A DNA stretch of 64,000 bases from an uncultured Methanosarcinales archaeon (lineage in GTDB: Archaea; Nanobdellota; Nanobdellia; Woesearchaeales; CALCXY01): the NCBI GenBank assembly GCA_964385185.1, contig CAYLOA010000001.1, positions 12,507-76,506 of the forward strand. The letters are read 5' to 3'. Position numbers and translations under genes: made by a program. A model generated the notes under the pieces. The model saw only the letters and a list, made by a program, of their open reading frames with translations, did not search any database and was not told the origin of the DNA. Shown in pieces: positions 152 to 53,467 of the stretch. Within the stretch, counting starts at the first letter, position 1. Every line of letters begins with the position of its first letter.

Positions 152-1440
152 CCTCCAAAATAATGCTTATGTAATACCTTAACTGCTTTCTCAACATCTT
201 TCTCTTCTATAACAAAACCAATATTAATCTCAGAAGCTCCCTGACTAATCATCTCTACATGAATCTTATTATCAGATAAAATATCAAATATAGGGGCGGC
301 CTTTCCAATTTTCTGTTTCAATCCTTCACCAACAACAATAATAATTGCATTATTAGGCTTAACAGTAACATCTCCTAGAGCTTCTAACTCAGTTATTGCA
401 GGACCTAACAAATCTCCATTATCCACCGTAAGACTTACACTCACCTCTGAAGTTGCAAGCATATCTACACTAATCTTATGCTTTGCAAAAATAGTAAATA
501 AGTCTGCCAAAAATCCAGGAGCAGCCATCATTCGTGAAGTACTCACATTAACAACAGTAATTCCTTTCTTGCTACTAATAGCTTTAACAATACCCTTACT
601 TTGTTTAACCATACTCACAACACGAGTCCCTGCAGAGGTAGGTTCTAAAGTATTCAAAACAACAACAGGAATGCTATGATCCACAGCAGGTAAAATAGTT
701 TTTGGATGTAACACTTTAGCTCCAAAATAAGACAATTCAGCAGCTTCGTCATAACTAATTTCTGAAATAGTGTGTGCATCTTTTACAATTCTCGGATCGG
801 CACTCATAACTCCTGTTACATCTGTCCAAATTTGAATTTCAGATACTGCTAATGCAGCTCCAATGATAGCAGCAGTATAATCACTTCCCCCTCTACCAAA
901 GGTTGTAATCACACCCTCTTCACTTTTTCCGATAAATCCTGTTACTATTGGAACATCGGTAACTGAAGAAAGATTTTTCTCAAGTTCTATGTATGATTCA
1001 GGAAGCAATTCAGCCTCAGTAGGGGTACTATCGGTCTGCATTCCAATATCATACGCATTATGTGCAGTTGCAGCTATCCCTTCCTTAACAAGATAGGCAG
1101 CCAATATTTTGGTGCTTAATCGTTCTCCAAAACTCACTATAGTATCCATCTGAGTTGCGTCAGGTGTACCTACTTTTTTAACAAAAGTTTCCAATTCGTC
1201 CAATTCTGACAATACTTCTTCAGATATTCCTAAAGAACTTACAATTTGAGTGTGTTTCTTTCTAATTCCTGCTAGATCAATCTTTCCAGTAGCAGCTTCA
1301 AGTAACATATCAGTCACTCCCCCTACTGCACTCAGTACAACAACGGGTTTTTCATCTAGCTTAGACTGGATAATCTTCGCCACTTGTTGTATCCTTTCAG
1401 CACTTCCAACAGAAGTACCTCCGAATTTCATAACTATCAT
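148..1440 (-). CDS. lysC: aspartate kinase (aspartokinase)
   Basis: N-terminus MIVMKFGGTSVGS is the classic amino-acid kinase opening. There is a GRGGSDYTA-type motif and a C-terminal ACT-like region. Length is 430 aa. Confidence 0.85.
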   Translation of the reverse strand: MIVMKFGGTSVGSAERIQQVAKIIQSKLDEKPVVVLSAVGGVTDMLLEAATGKIDLAGIRKKHTQIVSSLGISEEVLSELDELETFVKKVGTPDATQMDTIVSFGERLSTKILAAYLVKEGIAATAHNAYDIGMQTDSTPTEAELLPESYIELEKNLSSVTDVPIVTGFIGKSEEGVITTFGRGGSDYTAAIIGAALAVSEIQIWTDVTGVMSADPRIVKDAHTISEISYDEAAELSYFGAKVLHPKTILPAVDHSIPVVVLNTLEPTSAGTRVVSMVKQSKGIVKAISSKKGITVVNVSTSRMMAAPGFLADLFTIFAKHKISVDMLATSEVSVSLTVDNGDLLGPAITELEALGDVTVKPNNAIIIVVGEGLKQKIGKAAPIFDILSDNKIHVEMISQGASEINIGFVIEEKDVEKAVKVLHKHYFGG

Positions 1441-1543
1441 TAGAACAAGTAAGTAAAATCAATTTAAAAAGGTTGTTGAAAAAAGAACAATTGAGTATGA
1501 ATTTCGCAAAAAACAAATCTTTTTAAGATAGCATTGATTCTCC

Positions 1544-40185: not shown

Positions 40186-40656
40186 CTATTCCAATAATAA
40201 GATTATATCTTTTTCTTCCTCTACAGTCTCGTTGATAGTAAAAACCTTCTTTATCGCTTTCATAATAGTATCAGATTTAGAACTCCTCTTCAGAAAACTA
40301 ACCACAACTTTACCTTTACCCACTCTTTTCATCTCTTTTAGTCCTTTCTCAACATCACTAAAGTTACCCAAAGCGGTTACACAGATAATATAGTCAAAAC
40401 TGCTATCCTGGAAAGGCAAATGTTCTCCAAAACCCTGAACTCTATTGCCTTTCCCTTGTGTAACTAATCCAAAACTAGGGTCAACCCCTACAACATTACA
40501 TTTCCAATCAGAACTCAATCCTGTTCCGCAACCCACATCTAACAAACTCTCACTCTTCTTAGGAGAAATTAAACTCTTAATAACCTTCATCTTCTTAGCC
40601 TGTTCCTCACTATGCAGCTCATGATAACTTTTTGCTATTTTATCATAATAGTTCAT
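40186..40656 (-). CDS. class I SAM-dependent methyltransferase
   Basis: LLDVGCGTGLSS is motif I. I trimmed the start to the internal Met (MNYYDKIAKSYHELH). The upstream 80 codons of the track ORF are hydrophobic nonsense. Confidence 0.65.
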   Translation of the reverse strand: MNYYDKIAKSYHELHSEEQAKKMKVIKSLISPKKSESLLDVGCGTGLSSDWKCNVVGVDPSFGLVTQGKGNRVQGFGEHLPFQDSSFDYIICVTALGNFSDVEKGLKEMKRVGKGKVVVSFLKRSSKSDTIMKAIKKVFTINETVEEEKDIILLLE

Positions 40657-40728
40657 AAAAAGAGTATTTGAGTTTGCATATATAATAATGCCGGAGTTGA
40701 AATAAAAAAAAGGAGACGAAGTTAGATA

Positions 40729-40785
40729 CTCGCAGTCGAAAGACTGCGAGAGTGGGCACTCTGTGAGTGCCTCAGTTATTTTTTC
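40729..40785 (+). ncRNA. two GC-rich hairpins plus T-run; candidate small RNA 3' end or terminator element
   Basis: Hairpin 1 is ctcgcagtc-gaaa-gactgcgag, a perfect 9-bp stem with a GAAA loop. Hairpin 2 is gggcactc-tgt-gagtgcc, followed by ttatttttt. It lies in a divergent intergenic region with no upstream plus-strand CDS. Confidence 0.3.
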
Positions 40786-40840: not shown

Positions 40841-41065
40841 ATGTCCAAAGTAATATGGGGTATAGCAATCTTTGTTGTTATAGGATTTTTCCTCATATAC
40901 TCAACACTACAAACAAACTTTTCAGATCCAGACGATGTACAAACATTTGTAGGGGCTGCGTTTGAATGGGTAGGACAAATAGGTAAATCAACCTACACAG
41001 TAGGAAAAACAGCTACTGAGCAAGATTGGTTACCACCAAATACAACATTTATTGTAAACGACTAA
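40841..41065 (+). CDS. small membrane-anchored protein
   Basis: Start trimmed to MSKVIWGIAIFVVIGFFLIY, a signal anchor. Length 74 aa. Confidence 0.4.
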   Translation: MSKVIWGIAIFVVIGFFLIYSTLQTNFSDPDDVQTFVGAAFEWVGQIGKSTYTVGKTATEQDWLPPNTTFIVND

Positions 41066-47483: not shown

Positions 47484-49162
47484 AACCTCTTACTCATATA
47501 GACTCCATCTTTCTTATACCCTAATTTCTTATAATAACCTTTGGTTCCAATTGCAGAAATAACTACCATCTTAGATTTCAAATACGTTTCAGCAATCTCT
47601 TCAGCATGACTCATTAATTTTTTCCCGATACCTCTATGCTGTGCCATCCCTTTAGCACCTTTATCTCCCAATCCAACAACTTCACCCATAACATGTAATT
47701 CTCGAATAAGTGCAACATCTCCTTTTAATTCCGAACGCAAATGCTTAGCCGGAAACCTCAACCTACAATACCCAAGCAAAGCCTCACCTGCAAGAGCTTG
47801 AATAAAAAACTCATTCCCTCCAGCAGCTTTATACTCTCTAACAGTATAATGAACCTTACCCAATTTCTTCAAACTTCTACCCACTTCTCGACATCGAATA
47901 CATTTACATACAATCCCTAACCTCTCAGCTTCTTTATCTGCATACTGTCTCAAATTAGTTCGATCAACACCTGCTGAAGTTACATGGGTAGGAATATCTC
48001 TTTGTACTCTCATAATTCTACAATATTCAGGAATATCTAGTTTAGCTTTAGCAATAATCTTTGCAGCTTCTTTTGTAGTCATCGGATCAAATTTTCCTTT
48101 TTTCCAGTCTTTGAACAACTCAGTTCCTGGCATTACCATACAAGGATAAATCTTTAACATATCAGGTTCATATTCCTCTTCAGCAAACAATCGTTTAAAG
48201 ACTGCTTGATCCATTCTTTTGGAAACGCCAGGTAATCCTAACATAATATGAAAATTTAATTTATATCCTAGATCACGCAATGTTGCAATACTTTTAATCG
48301 TGTCATCCAAACCATGACCTCGATTAGTATCCCATAGCACCTTATCATAGAGAGTTTGAACACCTAATTCAATTCGTGTACATCCTAATCGTAAAAGAAA
48401 GTTTCCATGAGCTAATCTCCCATACTGAGGATTCGTTTCAATAGTTAATCCTACACATTTAATCTGACTCTTCTCATTCTTAGCTTGCTCTTTCTCTAAA
48501 GTTGTCTTTCTTTTCTTCAACTTTAACAATTTCTTAATCAACCATTTCTCACGAGCAGGATCAGTAATATCTGCAGGCAAGTTAAACCATTTCTTAAATT
48601 TCCCCAAATCCAATTCTCCTTTTTTAAAAAACAATCTTGAAAAATCATTCATAGCTTGAAAAAAACCTGTACAATAATCCTCTTGATATTTCTTGGGATA
48701 AGAAGGAAACGTCCCCCCTTGTACAATCACTTCTACCTTCTCAGGAAGATGTCCTGCACAAATATATTGTTGCAATCTGTTCATCATAATCAAATAAGAA
48801 TCAAAATTATTCCTAATCGATCGCATAGTAGAAGGTTCATTCCCTGTATACGATTGAGGAACATCACCAAAGACAGATTGTGGCCCTCCTGGACAAAAAG
48901 TACAGGTACCATGGGCACATTTCCGAGGAGCAGCCATCATAGCAACAACAGCAACCCCTGATAATGTCCGAACTGGCTTAGTAATCAAATACCGTTTAAC
49001 ACCTTTTAATTGAGCCTCTGTTAAATCTAAGAGAATATCGATATCCTTAGGAATCTTTGCCATCTTGTGCTTTCTGCACAATGCAACTTTCTTCCGATTC
49101 AGCTGAGTCTTACTAGGCTTATTCTTCCGAATATAAGCTACCAACTCATCATAATAATCCAT
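47480..49162 (-). CDS. elp3: tRNA uridine(34) acetyltransferase Elp3 homologue (radical SAM + GNAT)
   Basis: CAHGTCTFCPGG is the Cx4Cx2C motif typical of Elp3. The C-terminal GNAT domain includes HRGIGKKLMSHAEE. Length 560 aa. Confidence 0.85.
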   Translation of the reverse strand: MDYYDELVAYIRKNKPSKTQLNRKKVALCRKHKMAKIPKDIDILLDLTEAQLKGVKRYLITKPVRTLSGVAVVAMMAAPRKCAHGTCTFCPGGPQSVFGDVPQSYTGNEPSTMRSIRNNFDSYLIMMNRLQQYICAGHLPEKVEVIVQGGTFPSYPKKYQEDYCTGFFQAMNDFSRLFFKKGELDLGKFKKWFNLPADITDPAREKWLIKKLLKLKKRKTTLEKEQAKNEKSQIKCVGLTIETNPQYGRLAHGNFLLRLGCTRIELGVQTLYDKVLWDTNRGHGLDDTIKSIATLRDLGYKLNFHIMLGLPGVSKRMDQAVFKRLFAEEEYEPDMLKIYPCMVMPGTELFKDWKKGKFDPMTTKEAAKIIAKAKLDIPEYCRIMRVQRDIPTHVTSAGVDRTNLRQYADKEAERLGIVCKCIRCREVGRSLKKLGKVHYTVREYKAAGGNEFFIQALAGEALLGYCRLRFPAKHLRSELKGDVALIRELHVMGEVVGLGDKGAKGMAQHRGIGKKLMSHAEEIAETYLKSKMVVISAIGTKGYYKKLGYKKDGVYMSKRL

Positions 49163-49193
49163 AGCCTATAGAATATAGATTCAGTTTAAAAAA

Positions 49194-51845
49194 CTACCCC
49201 TTCACAAAAAGTCCACGAATGAGCTTAAATGCTTCCATAATAAAAAATACACTGGAACTTACTCCAACGATATACAACCAATCAAGTCCTGCTATAGGGA
49301 CGGTATGGAAATAGGTGTTCAGCGGAGTATAGAGAACGACTAATTGTAAGCCAAAGGAGATAAACAAAGCCACCCATAACCATTTATTTTTAAAAAATCC
49401 TACAGTAAACAAACTCTTAGTACTACTTCTTGCATTGAGGACATTAAACAATTGAAACATAACCAAAGTCGTAAATGCCATAGTTCGAGCATACTCTACA
49501 TTATCTATAAAATAATTAAAGATCAGTAAAGTCCCAGCAGCCATAACTCCTCCTACAAACAACATCTTAAAAAGCATCACACCAGGAATGATTTTCTCAT
49601 GAGGATTTCGAGGTAGTTGACTCATAATATCATGATCGTAAGGATCTGCACTCAAAGCCAATGCAGGCAAACCATCAGTTACTAAATTAATCCAAAGAAT
49701 GTGTAAAGCCAATAGAGGAACAAGAATCTCTCCCTCAGAACCTGAAAAGAGAAGTATAGCAATAAAAACAGTTAACACCTCTCCAAAATTACTGGATAGT
49801 AAATAATAAATAAATTTCTTAATATTATCATACACTCCTCTTCCTTTTTCTATGGCACTTACAATAGAAGCAAAATTATCATCAGTCAAAATCATATCTG
49901 CACTTTCCTTTGCCACATCAGTTCCTGTTATTCCCATAGCAACTCCTATATCAGCTGTTTTCAAAGCAGGAGCATCATTAACCCCATCTCCCGTCATAGC
50001 GACAATCTCTCCTTGTTTTTTCAAAGCTTCAACAATCCTCAACTTATGCTCAGGATTTACTCGTGAAAAGATACGAACATCCTCTAACACCTCTCCTAAA
50101 TCTTCCACTTTATCTAATTCAGATCCGTGCATACTTTTTCCCACCAAACCTAATTCTGCACCTACTGCTTTGGCAGTTAATTCATTATCTCCAGTAATCA
50201 TAATTACTTTAATCCCTGCAGCTTCGCAAGTAGCAATGGCTTCTTTGGCCTCCAGTCTTGGAGGATCCATCATAGCTTGAAGTCCTACAAACACCATTCC
50301 ATACTCTTCTAATTTTCCACCCTCTCTATAAGCAAATGCCAGTACTCGTAATGCTTTACTTGCAAAAGCATCATTCTTTGCCAGAATTTCTTTTCGAGAT
50401 GTTTTAGTAAGACGTTTAATTTTTCCATCAATTAAATACGTATCACACACATCCAAGATACTCTCAGGAGCTCCTTTTGCATACAATACCTTCTTCCCAC
50501 CGACCTTATGCTGTGTAGTCATCCGCTTTCGAGTAGAATCAAATCCTAACTCATCAACACGAACAGCCTTTCCTTCCAATTCATCTTTTTTCAATCCGGC
50601 TTTAGCTGCACTCACAATCAAAGCACCTTCGGTAGGATCTCCATGCAATAAACGTCCCTCAAAATGTGCATCATTACACAATGCCCCTATAGTTAACAAT
50701 TTAGAAAAAGAATCTGGTTTTACCATCCGATTGCCAATTGTAAATTCTCCAGTAGTGTTATATCCACTTCCCCCTATAGAAATAATTTTATCATTAACAA
50801 ACATTTTCACGACAGTCATCTCATCTTTTGTCAAAGTGCCTGTTTTATCTGTACAAATAATAGTGGTACTCCCTAATGTTTCCACAGAAGGTAATTTCCT
50901 CATGAGAGCATTTCGCTTTGCCATCTGTTGTACAGCAAGAGCCAATCCGATAGTAACTACAGCTGGCAATCCTTCTGGGATAGCCGCAACTGCCAGACTC
51001 ACGGCAATAATAAACAATCCTAAAAGATCAGTCCCTCCACGCAAATAACCGACTCCAAAAACAATCAAACACACACATAAAATAATCCAGGCCAAATATT
51101 TTCCTAAATATTGTAATTTCTTTTGCATAGGAGTTTCTTTTTCTTCAACTTCTGCAATCATAGAAGCAATTTTTCCCATCTCTGTTTTCATCCCCGTTCC
51201 TGTTACAAAAACACTCCCTCTACCTTTGGTAACAATCGTCCCCATAAAGACCATATTTTTTCGTTCTGCAAGAACAGTATCATCTCTCATTAATTTTATA
51301 GTTTTTTCAACAGGCAAACTCTCTCCGGTTAACATTCCCTCTTGAGTCTCCAAATTAATAGATGTTAACAAACGACCATCTGCTGCAACCTTATCTCCTA
51401 CTTCCAACAAAAGTAAATCTCCTGGAACAACTTCAGTGGCATCAATCTCAATCTCTTTATTGCTTCGAATAACCGTTGCTTTCAAACTAGCCATTTTTTG
51501 CAAAGCTTCAATAGCACGTTCCGCTTTATACTCCTGAAAAAATCCCACAAAAGCCATAAGCAAAATGATTACAAAAATAACAAAAGGCTCAACAAAATCC
51601 ACAAAATGGACTGAACCTTCTGCTTCAACATAGGCAACCGTAACACTTACAATAAGTGCAACAATTAAAATCCAAATAATCAAATTCTTAAATTGACGAA
51701 TAAAAATAGAGAATGCAGAATCTTTTTTCTTCCCTTCTAACACATTTTTTCCTTTTTTGAGAAGTTCAGCTGCTTTCGCAGTAGTTAACCCATCAGGACC
51801 CGATTCATATTTAAGAAATAATTCATCTAAAGAAATAGCGTGCAT
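49194..51845 (-). CDS. P-type cation-transporting ATPase (type IIA, Ca2+-ATPase-like)
   Basis: CTDKTGTLT phosphorylation motif, TGDGVNDAPAL, TGES and 10 TM helices. I set the start at MHAISLDELF (51845). The track start is 21 codons upstream. Confidence 0.9.
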   Translation of the reverse strand: MHAISLDELFLKYESGPDGLTTAKAAELLKKGKNVLEGKKKDSAFSIFIRQFKNLIIWILIVALIVSVTVAYVEAEGSVHFVDFVEPFVIFVIILLMAFVGFFQEYKAERAIEALQKMASLKATVIRSNKEIEIDATEVVPGDLLLLEVGDKVAADGRLLTSINLETQEGMLTGESLPVEKTIKLMRDDTVLAERKNMVFMGTIVTKGRGSVFVTGTGMKTEMGKIASMIAEVEEKETPMQKKLQYLGKYLAWIILCVCLIVFGVGYLRGGTDLLGLFIIAVSLAVAAIPEGLPAVVTIGLALAVQQMAKRNALMRKLPSVETLGSTTIICTDKTGTLTKDEMTVVKMFVNDKIISIGGSGYNTTGEFTIGNRMVKPDSFSKLLTIGALCNDAHFEGRLLHGDPTEGALIVSAAKAGLKKDELEGKAVRVDELGFDSTRKRMTTQHKVGGKKVLYAKGAPESILDVCDTYLIDGKIKRLTKTSRKEILAKNDAFASKALRVLAFAYREGGKLEEYGMVFVGLQAMMDPPRLEAKEAIATCEAAGIKVIMITGDNELTAKAVGAELGLVGKSMHGSELDKVEDLGEVLEDVRIFSRVNPEHKLRIVEALKKQGEIVAMTGDGVNDAPALKTADIGVAMGITGTDVAKESADMILTDDNFASIVSAIEKGRGVYDNIKKFIYYLLSSNFGEVLTVFIAILLFSGSEGEILVPLLALHILWINLVTDGLPALALSADPYDHDIMSQLPRNPHEKIIPGVMLFKMLFVGGVMAAGTLLIFNYFIDNVEYARTMAFTTLVMFQLFNVLNARSSTKSLFTVGFFKNKWLWVALFISFGLQLVVLYTPLNTYFHTVPIAGLDWLYIVGVSSSVFFIMEAFKLIRGLFVKG

Positions 51846-51846
51846 C

Positions 51847-52203
51847 TTACTTCTTTTTGTGTTGGTTCTTGTGTACTTGGTACACATATGTTGCCAACAC
51901 CACCCCAAACATAAAAAAGATCATAAGATTTACATTTACATTATCTATAAGTTTCTTAGGAGTTGCAGTAGCAACCACTTCAACACTTCTTCCGACTGTA
52001 GCGGCGAATAATGCTTTCTCTCTTGCAGATATTTCAGAAACTTGAGACACTTCAGAAGTAACTTCATACGGTTGCAGTAAATAAGATAACGGTAACATTA
52101 AGGTTGCTAAGATAGCAATATAGACTAACATATGTCGATGATCGTAACTAAACTCATCTTTATGAACTAATCTTCCATGTCCATCTCTTTTTACGGTTAC
52201 CAT
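51847..52203 (-). CDS. small two-TM membrane protein immediately upstream of the P-type ATPase
   Basis: I placed the start at the ATG at 52203 (MVTVKRDGHG...). Its stop abuts the ATPase start. The track ORF extends upstream through a TTG and a GC-rich structured region, and that extension is probably not coding. Confidence 0.4.
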   Translation of the reverse strand: MVTVKRDGHGRLVHKDEFSYDHRHMLVYIAILATLMLPLSYLLQPYEVTSEVSQVSEISAREKALFAATVGRSVEVVATATPKKLIDNVNVNLMIFFMFGVVLATYVYQVHKNQHKKK

Positions 52204-52209
52204 AACAAA

Positions 52210-52330
52210 GAGCCAGGACTTACGTCCTGACTGCACATCTTTACTTCGAAATTTGATAGATTTGCTGAATTTCGAAGTTTGCAGATTCGCCGCAAGGCGA
52301 GTCTGGATTATATCCTCCGAAGAGGAATTA
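52210..52330 (-). promoter_or_regulatory. GC-rich multi-hairpin element in 5' leader of the small-membrane-protein/P-type ATPase operon; candidate riboswitch or structured leader
   Basis: On the transcribed minus strand I see cctc-ttcg-gagg (UUCG loop), cgcc-ttgc-ggcg, a 9-bp cttcgaaat...atttcgaag stem, caggac-gtaa-gtcctg, and an enclosing ctgca/tgcag pairing. GC content is much higher than the flanks. Confidence 0.35.
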
Positions 52331-52519
52331 CTACTATATCTATATTTATTGCATATAAATGTTTCTGTGGTGTAAAACAAAAACCTTAAAAACCAACCTA
52401 TATTCTCTAGTAGCTATGAAGACAGTTAAATTATACAACACAGTAAGAGCATCTGGTAGTTAATTCTCTTTTTAATTCTCAGTAATTAATTAATTTTTTA
52501 ATATAATATAAACTAAAAG

Positions 52520-53467
52520 GTGATCCCTATGCTATACGTAAATGATGTAAAATGGAAAAAAGGAATGAAAGTAACTGAATTAGTTTCACAAATGAAACAT
52601 ACAGGCTTTCAATCAGTAGAATTAGCTAAAGCAGTCGATGTCTGCTTAAAGATGAAAAAAGAAGGTGCTAAAATCTTCTTAACATTCACCTCAAACATGG
52701 TCACATCTGGCCTTAGAGGCCTCTTTGCCCAATTAATTGAATTAGGCTTAGTAGATGTCATTGTAACAACTGTAGGCGCTGTTGAAGAAGATATCATGAA
52801 AGCAAACAAGGAACAGTTCCCAATTGGTTCTTTCTCTTCAGATGATGTAGAATTATACGAAAAAGGAGTAAACAGAGTGGGTAATCTCTACATCACTAAC
52901 GAAACGTATGGGAATTTCGAAAATACCATGACAGGATACATCAAAGATGCCTATGCAAAACAAAAACGATGGACACCGTCAGATCTCTTCACATTTATAG
53001 GTAAGAAGTTAGATGACACTTCATCAATCCTCTATCAAGCAACAAAGAACGATGTCCCGATCTTCTGTCCAGCAATAACAGATGGATCTCTAGGATTTCA
53101 TTTATTCATGTTTCAACAAAAACATGATGACTTTGTGATTGACGTTGTAAAAGACTTCAAAAACATTCTATTATGCACATCACACGATGAAAAGAAAGGG
53201 GCAATCTGTCTAGGTGGTTCCATTTCTAAACATCATGCAATCTTTGCATGTTTACTCAATGGTGGATTAGATTATGCAGTCTATATGACAACTGCTTCTC
53301 CAACATCTGGAAGTATGTCAGGAGCAACAACAAACGAAGCAAAATCTTGGGGTAAAGTCAAAGATGATTCTGATATTGCAACCGTGAAAGGAGATGTTAC
53401 CATTACCTTTCCGTTAATGATCTCTGCAGTCTTAGAAAAACTATCTGAAGAAGGAATACTGAAATGA
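52520..53467 (+). CDS. dys: deoxyhypusine synthase
   Basis: Length about 315 aa and a GGSISKHH motif that resembles the DHS GGxxPKHH. The N-terminal region is comparable to other archaeal DHS. Confidence 0.7.
   Translation: MIPMLYVNDVKWKKGMKVTELVSQMKHTGFQSVELAKAVDVCLKMKKEGAKIFLTFTSNMVTSGLRGLFAQLIELGLVDVIVTTVGAVEEDIMKANKEQFPIGSFSSDDVELYEKGVNRVGNLYITNETYGNFENTMTGYIKDAYAKQKRWTPSDLFTFIGKKLDDTSSILYQATKNDVPIFCPAITDGSLGFHLFMFQQKHDDFVIDVVKDFKNILLCTSHDEKKGAICLGGSISKHHAIFACLLNGGLDYAVYMTTASPTSGSMSGATTNEAKSWGKVKDDSDIATVKGDVTITFPLMISAVLEKLSEEGILK

Follow-up and report, generated by a model that had tools for sequence, protein, structure and literature searches.

A conserved two-hairpin 5' leader ahead of a P-type ATPase operon in Woesearchaeota-like archaea, with a candidate hairpin-bridged Shine–Dalgarno site

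Why should an archaeon whose genes mostly lack leaders place a long, folded, GC-rich sequence in front of one operon? The question is raised by positions 52210 to 52330 of a 64,000-nucleotide (nt) stretch of archaeal DNA (assembly GCA_964385185.1, contig CAYLOA010000001.1, positions 12,507 to 76,506; hereafter the window). On the minus strand of this region, an archaeal promoter is followed by four hairpins, a gene for a small protein with two transmembrane (TM) segments and then a gene for a P-type ATPase. An earlier note, made from the letters of the window, had read the stretch as a non-coding RNA structure in the leader of a small-protein/P-type ATPase operon, and comparison with homologous leaders bears this out. 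Two of the four hairpins, and a Shine–Dalgarno (SD)-like box beside them, recur in four lineages, with base pairing kept by compensatory change.

Location and fold of the leader

The leader lies in the intergenic region bounded by the divergent deoxyhypusine synthase gene (start 52529, plus strand) and the ATG of the small-protein gene (52203, minus strand). All leader coordinates are given on the minus strand. The features are listed in the order in which they would be transcribed, with the hairpins numbered H1 to H4 and the basis of each assignment in brackets.

52352..52366, minus strand: promoter, consisting of a B recognition element (BRE)-like AGAAAC, an A and the TATA box TTTATATG, first T at 52359 (sequence)
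52328..52331, minus strand: predicted transcription start, most likely A52329 in the conserved UU|AAUUCC (TATA distance rule)
52326-52313, minus strand: H1, UCCUC-UUCG-GAGGA, 5 base pairs (bp), -6.8 kcal/mol (fold and homologues)
52305-52282, minus strand: H2, CAGA.UCGCC-UUGC-GGCGA.UCUG (fold)
52278-52243, minus strand: H3, an 11-bp stem ACUUCGAAAUU/AAUUUCGAAGU with a 14-nt loop (fold)
52242..52307, minus strand: 66-nt insertion carrying H2 and H3, its edges uncertain by a few nt (lineage comparison)
52233..52241, minus strand: SD-like box AAGAUGUGC (sequence and homologues)
52232-52211, minus strand: H4, AGUCAGGAC-GUAA-GUCCUGGCU (equivalent to A-GUCAGGAC-GUAA-GUCCUGGC-U), 9 bp, -14.4 kcal/mol (fold and homologues)
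52204..52210, minus strand: spacer CUUUGUU between H4 and AUG, without an SD (sequence)
51847..52203, minus strand: small-protein gene, 118 amino acids (aa), two-TM, ATG at 52203 and TAA at 51849-51847 (open reading frame)
49194..51845, minus strand: SERCA/PMR1-type P-type ATPase gene, 883 aa, ATG at 51845, one base past the small-gene stop (open reading frame and Pfam)

The earlier note had described locally high GC in AT-rich DNA. The GC fraction of 52210-52330 was 0.438, compared with 0.347 for the whole window and 0.237 for the remaining intergenic DNA, which places the region in the top 3.6% of the window's 121-nt stretches. RNAfold gave -45.2 kcal/mol for a 151-nt fold (z = -4.06), with 0 of 200 shuffles as stable; for a 147-nt fold, z was -5.46 and again no shuffle was equally stable. 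All four hairpins that the note had drawn on the minus strand were found in both the minimum free energy (MFE) and the centroid structure, and the four-hairpin element is single-copy within the window. The note had further proposed an enclosing pairing of CUGCA (52284-52280) with UGCAG (52235-52231). These sequences are present, but their pairing competes with H2 and H4, is absent from the MFE and centroid structures and lies partly in an insertion specific to the window lineage.

A conserved core of two hairpins and a box

Homologous leaders were taken from the upstream DNA of three further lineages, reached via relatives of the small protein and the closest ATPase homologues. These lineages are referred to here as the L014/L005 type (with a variant, L007), L017 and the L049/L046 type; with the window as the fourth, they provide five distinct sequences. 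The ATPase is 81% identical to that of the window in the L014/L005 type, 63% in the L049/L046 type and 62% in L017. The small protein of the L049/L046 type is 39% identical to the window's.

One order of elements was common to the four lineages: TATA, ~30 nt, H1, 1-5 nt, box, 1-4 nt, H4, 7-11 nt, AUG, where the distance from H1 to the box holds without the window's insertion. The box reads AAGAGGUGC in the three other lineages and AAGAUGUGC in the window. The H1 arms are UCCUC/GAGGA in the window and UCCCU/AGGGA, CCCGU/ACGGG and UCCUU/AAGGA elsewhere, closed in the same order by the loops UUCG, UUCG, UUA and GCAA, with energies of -4.9 to -6.8 kcal/mol. For H4, the arms are GUCAGGAC/GUCCUGGC in the window and GUCAGGGC/GCCCUGGC, GUCAGGGG/CUCCUGGC and GCUGGGGC/GUCCCAGC elsewhere; the loops, in the same order, are GUAA, UUCG, CUCUG and UAAG, and the energies -14.4, -15.7, -14.7 and -16.1 kcal/mol. 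The spacer from H4 to AUG keeps its length of 7-11 nt in all lineages and varies in sequence (AAUCAUA in the L049 type).

Because MAFFT put either the SD-like box or H1 in the wrong place across the insertion, and displaced L017 by a column, covariation was scored on an alignment of the helix arms only. In this alignment, all 52 of the H1 and H4 pair cells from the four lineages held standard pairs. Double (compensatory) changes occurred in 6 of the 13 pairs, and one-sided changes via G-U in 2 more. For H1, 3 of 5 pairs showed double changes, with none broken; for H4, 3 of 8 showed double changes and 2 of 8 one-sided changes, again with none broken. Not one of 500 column shuffles matched the observed pairing values, and a control in which the 3' partners were slid by 1-3 columns yielded no double changes. 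Covariation across homologues thus supports H1 and H4 of the element described in the earlier note, and does not extend to H2 and H3, which are present only in the window lineage.

Other aspects of the comparison concern the strand and the degree of conservation. The U-G and G-U pairs correspond to C-A mismatches on the plus strand and T-G mismatches in duplex DNA; they fit only minus-strand RNA, and this fixes the minus strand as the RNA strand. Tetraloops of the UUCG and GNRA classes interchange between lineages. Among the window, L014 and L017, the box and H4 arms are 84-88% identical, about as high as the second codon positions of the ATPase, compared with 39-53% at third codon positions in the genes next to them; among the same three, identity of the small protein is 32-71%. 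These data make us confident that the region is a non-coding, conserved, structured 5' leader.

The RNA motif is real and of a familiar kind, and was previously uncatalogued. Rfam cmscan of 51800-52600 with 4227 families at E<=10 returned only ar9 (16.1 bits versus a cut-off of 45) and a snoRNA, both chance-level. A search of the whole window at Rfam gathering thresholds found tRNA-Pro only, and three relatives searched at E<=10 gave nothing but sub-threshold chance matches. ARAGORN detected no tRNA-like gene at the leader site.

Searches for further copies were made in several collections. A pattern of H4 plus tail, scanned against GTDB species representatives, gave only 5 bacterial chance matches; this pattern was probably overly strict, given the variable lower stem and tail revealed by the L049 type. 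A metagenome scan with the small-protein alignment identified one locus, on a contig cut at the gene and so without leader sequence. Scanning of viral contigs for the box and the start of H4 produced 20 chance matches, 0 of them followed by the 3' arm. A covariance model, run over 104 kb of window and homologue sequence, recovered orthologous sites only, plus one chance match (E=1.8); it aligned only the H4 half of the window leader, owing to the insertion. Neither a small gene nor the leader motif was seen at the ATPase homologues L039, L040 and L041 (56-57% identity) or at L018 (63%), whose contig ends 194 nt upstream of the ATPase. As far as seen, the motif is confined to a narrow marine Woesearchaeota-like clade.

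Two of these homologues have features of their own upstream of the ATPase. In L018 (1-194), three unrelated, AT-rich inverted repeats precede the gene: AAGACCAAA/TTTGGTCTT, ATAGACGC/GCGTCTAT and AGCAAAGTGCA/TGCACTTTGCT. In L040, a 98-nt tRNA-Leu(AAG) gene (1399-1496, plus strand) lies four bases upstream of the ATG of the 56%-identical archaeal homologue.

A recent insertion in the window lineage

Between the 3' end of H1 and the ATG, the window has 109 nt, compared with 43 nt in L014, 42 nt in L007 and 45 nt in L017, which identifies H2 and H3 as a 66-nt insertion of the window lineage. The L049 type lacks this insertion as well. Three independent metagenome contigs that span it whole (L001, L002 and L004) carry identical copies, and L003, which spans only its 3' part, has no visible differences. 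No other copies, of the sort that might indicate an origin like that of a miniature inverted-repeat transposable element (MITE), were found within the window. H2 and H3 are a recent insertion, which adds structure and lies outside the conserved device.

The idea of the element as one unit, put forward in the earlier note, therefore has to be given up: H2, H3 and part of the enclosing pairing belong to an insertion that the three other lineages lack. This is a caution more generally. Half of the striking structure is a young insertion, and one sequence on its own made the functional element look larger than it is.

A possible hairpin-bridged ribosome-binding site

Across the window, TATA-like boxes (measured from the first T) peak 28-31 nt before ATG, with 28 hits in that interval versus ~3 per 4-nt bin elsewhere. 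The peak covers 27 of 62 window open reading frames (ORFs), and because of it most window genes are taken to be leaderless. A minority have short leaders with the SD sequence GGUG(AU) located 2-12 nt, mostly 4-7 nt, before ATG; the deoxyhypusine synthase gene (AAAAGGTGATCCCT-ATG) is an example. The operon promoter, of the same type as those before leaderless genes across the window, is kept in all four lineages as (A)AC(A/C)TTTATA or CGTTTAAATA. In lineages where the next upstream gene is known, it is divergent, and the conserved TATA is therefore the only promoter available to the operon. Judged by its position, transcription would start at about A52329, for a predicted 5' untranslated region (UTR) of ~126 nt, exceptional for a mostly leaderless genome. 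In the L014 and L049 types, the start is predicted at the same A, with a UTR of ~60 nt.

From the structure of the leader we infer how it may work. The box is the only SD-like sequence present (GAGGUG in three lineages, GAUGUG in the window) and stands 32-36 nt before AUG; no SD occurs within 15 nt of the small-gene AUG in any lineage. H4 would act as a clamp, looping out 20-23 nt between the box and AUG. With H4 folded, the distant box would come to lie 8-14 single-stranded nt from the start codon, the value depending on how closing pairs are counted. There is precedent in phage T4 genes 38 and 25, where a phylogenetically conserved hairpin shortens the SD-AUG distance of 22 nt to 5 nt in the former and that of 27 nt to 11 nt in the latter, and raises initiation (PMC3014915). 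A ribosome-binding site split in this way might set the translation level of a rare leadered mRNA in a mostly leaderless genome, although H4 could equally damp initiation as help it.

H1 would have a different role. In three lineages it starts ~4 nt, and in L017 ~5-8 nt, from the predicted 5' end. Terminal hairpins a few nt from the 5' end protect bacterial mRNAs, and H1 may likewise cap the 5' end and probably shield the transcript from decay initiated there. Archaea do possess 5'-3' exoribonucleases, with aRNase J and aCPSF2 described in other lineages (PMC7144898, PMC3792030). We tentatively favor, as the function of the leader, control of translation initiation and mRNA stability through a hairpin-bridged SD.

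Several points weigh against this proposal. The spacing of 8-14 nt overlaps the T4 gene 25 value, yet exceeds the 4-7 nt of the window's ordinary SD genes. The transcription start is a prediction from TATA distance. The window box is degenerate, with GAUGUG in place of GAGGUG, and in the predicted window fold codons 3-5 pair with the whole of the AUG (probability unpaired 0.00). The probability that the GGUG core of the box is unpaired ranges between lineages from 0.07 (L017) to 0.72, and in some lineages weak pairing is predicted of the box with the spacer or of AUG with early codons. As for the covariation, the sample comprises only four lineages and five distinct sequences, and the helix arms were picked from each sequence's own fold, anchored by conserved flanks, a procedure that favors full pairing. 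Finally, the box and the lower H4 stem appear more conserved than an SD and a spacer hairpin need be, which fits recognition by a specific factor.

A similar arrangement was noticed at the second gene of the operon. Within the 3' end of the small gene (51850-51908, minus strand), GGGGUGGUG stands before a nested hairpin, with GUGUUGG...CCAACAC around GUGUAC...GUACAC, and 13 nt then lead to the ATPase AUG. This SD-hairpin-AUG series is kept in the 81% relative and not in L017 or L046, so it was not counted as support; the nested hairpin may be incidental to the protein sequence.

Alternative explanations

The excess conservation bears most directly on the possibility that the leader is a platform for a trans-acting RNA-binding protein or small RNA, which would bind the box and the base of H4 and switch translation or stability on a signal. 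In three lineages, AAGAGGUGC and GUCAGG/CCUGGC are 84-88% conserved, above the need of a spacer hairpin, and a U-G wobble is kept. Moreover, the divergent neighbor in L017 is a response-regulator/histidine-kinase-like gene. But the L049 type rewrites the lower H4 stem by compensatory changes (GCUGGG/CCCAGC), which indicates that the stem sequence as such is unneeded, and no candidate regulator is conserved beside the operon across lineages. The box is also more simply explained as an SD. We regard recognition by such a factor as unlikely, while granting it a real chance.

A related but stronger claim is that the leader is a true regulatory switch for an archaeal Ca2+/Mn2+ pump, a hairpin-bridged site whose box and H4 are opened or closed by an ion or a dedicated factor. 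We think this doubtful. Were it true, the leader would be the first structured cis-regulatory mRNA leader described in DPANN and the first split SD site outside phage T4, and would show a leaderless-type archaeon singling out one operon for post-transcriptional control.

H4 and a U-rich tail might instead form a premature terminator, at which most transcripts would end ahead of the AUG, such that the leader yields a 60-125-nt small RNA or works as an attenuator, with the operon expressed by read-through. A scan flagged H4 followed by CTTTGTT in the window, GC-rich hairpins are rare there, and L017 has CUUUUAUUUAUU after H4. The U-run after H4 is not conserved, however (U3 in the window, U3 in the L014 type, U4 in L017 and none in the L049 type). 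Archaeal termination depends on U tracts of at least 4 (PMC8716108), a requirement that the tails of the window, L014 and L049 types fall below. No conserved anti-terminator pairing was found in the lineage folds, and the operon has no other promoter. Termination at H4 therefore seems improbable. In this connection, we considered that CUCUU after H4 might alternate between AAGAG of the box and AAGAG of codons 5-6; the idea was dropped, as the L049 type is without CUCUU.

The earlier note had raised the possibility of a metal-sensing leader, and a riboswitch-like element that senses Mg2+, Ca2+ or Mn2+ and controls the ATPase would suit the gene context. A precedent comes from Streptococcus, where a Mn2+/Ca2+ P-type ATPase is under the control of a yybP-ykoY Mn2+ riboswitch (PMC6649816); the leader also stands out in a leaderless genome, and there is room for non-specific ion-dependent folding. 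Yet no Rfam metal-riboswitch or Mg-sensor family matched the window or three relatives at E<=10. The core consists of two uninterrupted hairpins whose loops vary; it has no bulge, internal loop or junction that is conserved and could form a pocket, and its only invariant single-stranded stretch is the SD-like box. No alternative, mutually exclusive pairing is common to the lineages, and half of the element originally flagged is the lineage-specific insertion. On these grounds a metal sensor is hard to credit.

It is less plausible again that the inverted repeats are DNA operator palindromes for a repressor. Archaeal repressors often bind shortly after the TATA box and start site, and the positions here would be suitable, with H1 at ~+4 to +17 and H4 at ~+34 to +55 from the predicted start. 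But the arms compensate to unrelated sequences (UCCUC to CCCGU; GUCAGG to GCUGGG), and a protein of fixed specificity would not tolerate such rewriting. An operator is also ill matched by the U-G and G-U pairs, which become mismatches on the opposite strand and in duplex DNA, and by loops that are interchanging extra-stable RNA tetraloops.

Translation of the leader, as an N-terminal extension from TTG 52380 or GTG 52236 or as a leader peptide, can be set aside almost entirely: although in the window the 70 codons preceding the ATG form an open frame, with in-frame TTG and GTG, and one gene caller chose the GTG (129-aa P0001), the other lineages show in-frame stops, absent starts and frame-changing indels, and substitutions track base pairing rather than codons. 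Specifically, L014 has an in-frame TAA 21 codons upstream of the small-gene start, a 1-nt indel in the linker separates L007 from L014, L017 has no in-frame ATG, GTG or TTG across 32 open codons, and in the L049 type the frame is closed by a TGA 13 codons upstream, after which no start follows. Relative to H4, the frame of L017 is not that of the other lineages, and the small upstream ORFs vary from lineage to lineage in both frame and length. The TTG ORF (177 aa, 51847-52380) is thus not conserved and, as the earlier note had surmised, not coding.

Comparison with known systems

The closest parallel to the proposed hairpin-bridged SD is in T4 genes 38 and 25 (PMC3014915). In both cases the SD is too far upstream (by 22 and 27 nt in T4 and by 32-36 nt in the archaeal leader), a stable hairpin kept in relatives lies wholly between SD and AUG, and folding shortens the single-stranded spacing, to 5-11 nt in T4 and to a predicted 8-14 nt here. 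The settings differ, a bacterial phage versus an archaeal chromosome, and the sequences are unrelated. In T4 an effect on translation was demonstrated, whereas for the archaeal leader it is proposed. The window box is a weakened SD, and the archaeal leader has an extra 5'-terminal hairpin.

That extra hairpin brings to mind the 5'-terminal stabilizers of the E. coli ompA leader and the B. subtilis ermC and aprE leaders. The likeness would be a short hairpin a few nt from the 5' end of a leadered mRNA, conserved in structure and not in sequence; the difference is that the archaeal 5' end is predicted from TATA distance.

With regard to metal-responsive leaders, yybP-ykoY (RF00080) resembles the present case in that a structured leader precedes a P-type IIA-like cation pump (PMC6649816). 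Unlike it, the archaeal leader has no match to the model at E<=10 and lacks the four-helix architecture and conserved loop nucleotides. The M-box/ykoK riboswitch and the Salmonella mgtA leader are likewise long structured leaders before cation-transport P-type ATPases; the archaeal leader differs in having no Rfam match at E<=10, no alternative stem-loops and no conserved leader peptide.

To our knowledge, few structured cis-acting mRNA leaders have been documented in archaea; for DPANN lineages we found none described in the literature. What is seen here is a covarying two-hairpin leader kept before one pump operon while the proteins diverged to 35-80% identity. If the hairpin-bridged SD holds, a phage T4 mechanism would extend to archaea, and the operon would offer a simple, testable case of tuning leadered translation amid leaderless genes.

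Operon genes and neighboring features

The gene assignments of the earlier note proved sound: the ATG at 52203 begins a 118-aa two-TM protein, whose TAA is one base before the ATPase ATG. The small protein is 112-132 aa in the four lineages, with its stop always one base before the start of the SERCA-type ATPase. It matched no Pfam family. A full HMMER search of 1.84 billion proteins gave 8 representatives as relatives, and a word-based search 3-4 clusters. The protein may serve the pump as a small subunit or a regulator specific to these lineages. The ATPase has the Pfam domains Cation_ATPase_N, E1-E2_ATPase, Hydrolase and Cation_ATPase_C. It is identical or nearly so to proteins on marine metagenome contigs, and the name Candidatus Woesearchaeota archaeon is attached to one protein of its 90% cluster. 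Its named best matches are all Candidatus Woesearchaeota, the named homologues being 52-57% identical. We take the source of the window to be a marine Woesearchaeota-like archaeon.

Downstream of the ATPase lies an ELP3-like gene with its own TATA 28 nt before the ATG, inside the ATPase 3' end (49162-49200, minus strand). As this is the leaderless distance, we take the operon to comprise the small gene and the ATPase; the ELP3-like gene is probably a separate leaderless transcript.

A block of the form (GG)TTTTTAAGG.TTTT is found 30-50 nt upstream of the operon TATA (~52380-52425 in the window, and in homologous parts of L014 and L049). It is common to lineages with different divergent genes, namely deoxyhypusine synthase in the window and L049 and a 149-aa ORF in L014. 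The block is probably a divergent promoter (TTAAAAAC on the plus strand). As a promoter in the window, TTAAAAAC would drive only a 15-codon ORF ahead of the deoxyhypusine synthase gene.

Elsewhere in the window, two adjacent GC-rich hairpins, CUCGCAGUC-GAAA-GACUGCGAG and GGGCACUC-UGU-GAGUGCCU, are followed by CAGUUAUUUUUU (40710-40785, plus strand). The pair lies between divergent, apparently leaderless genes (CAT at 40654-40656; ATG at 40842). It had no Rfam match above chance. From its sequence, the 40710-40785 segment looks like a small RNA gene with a U6 terminator.

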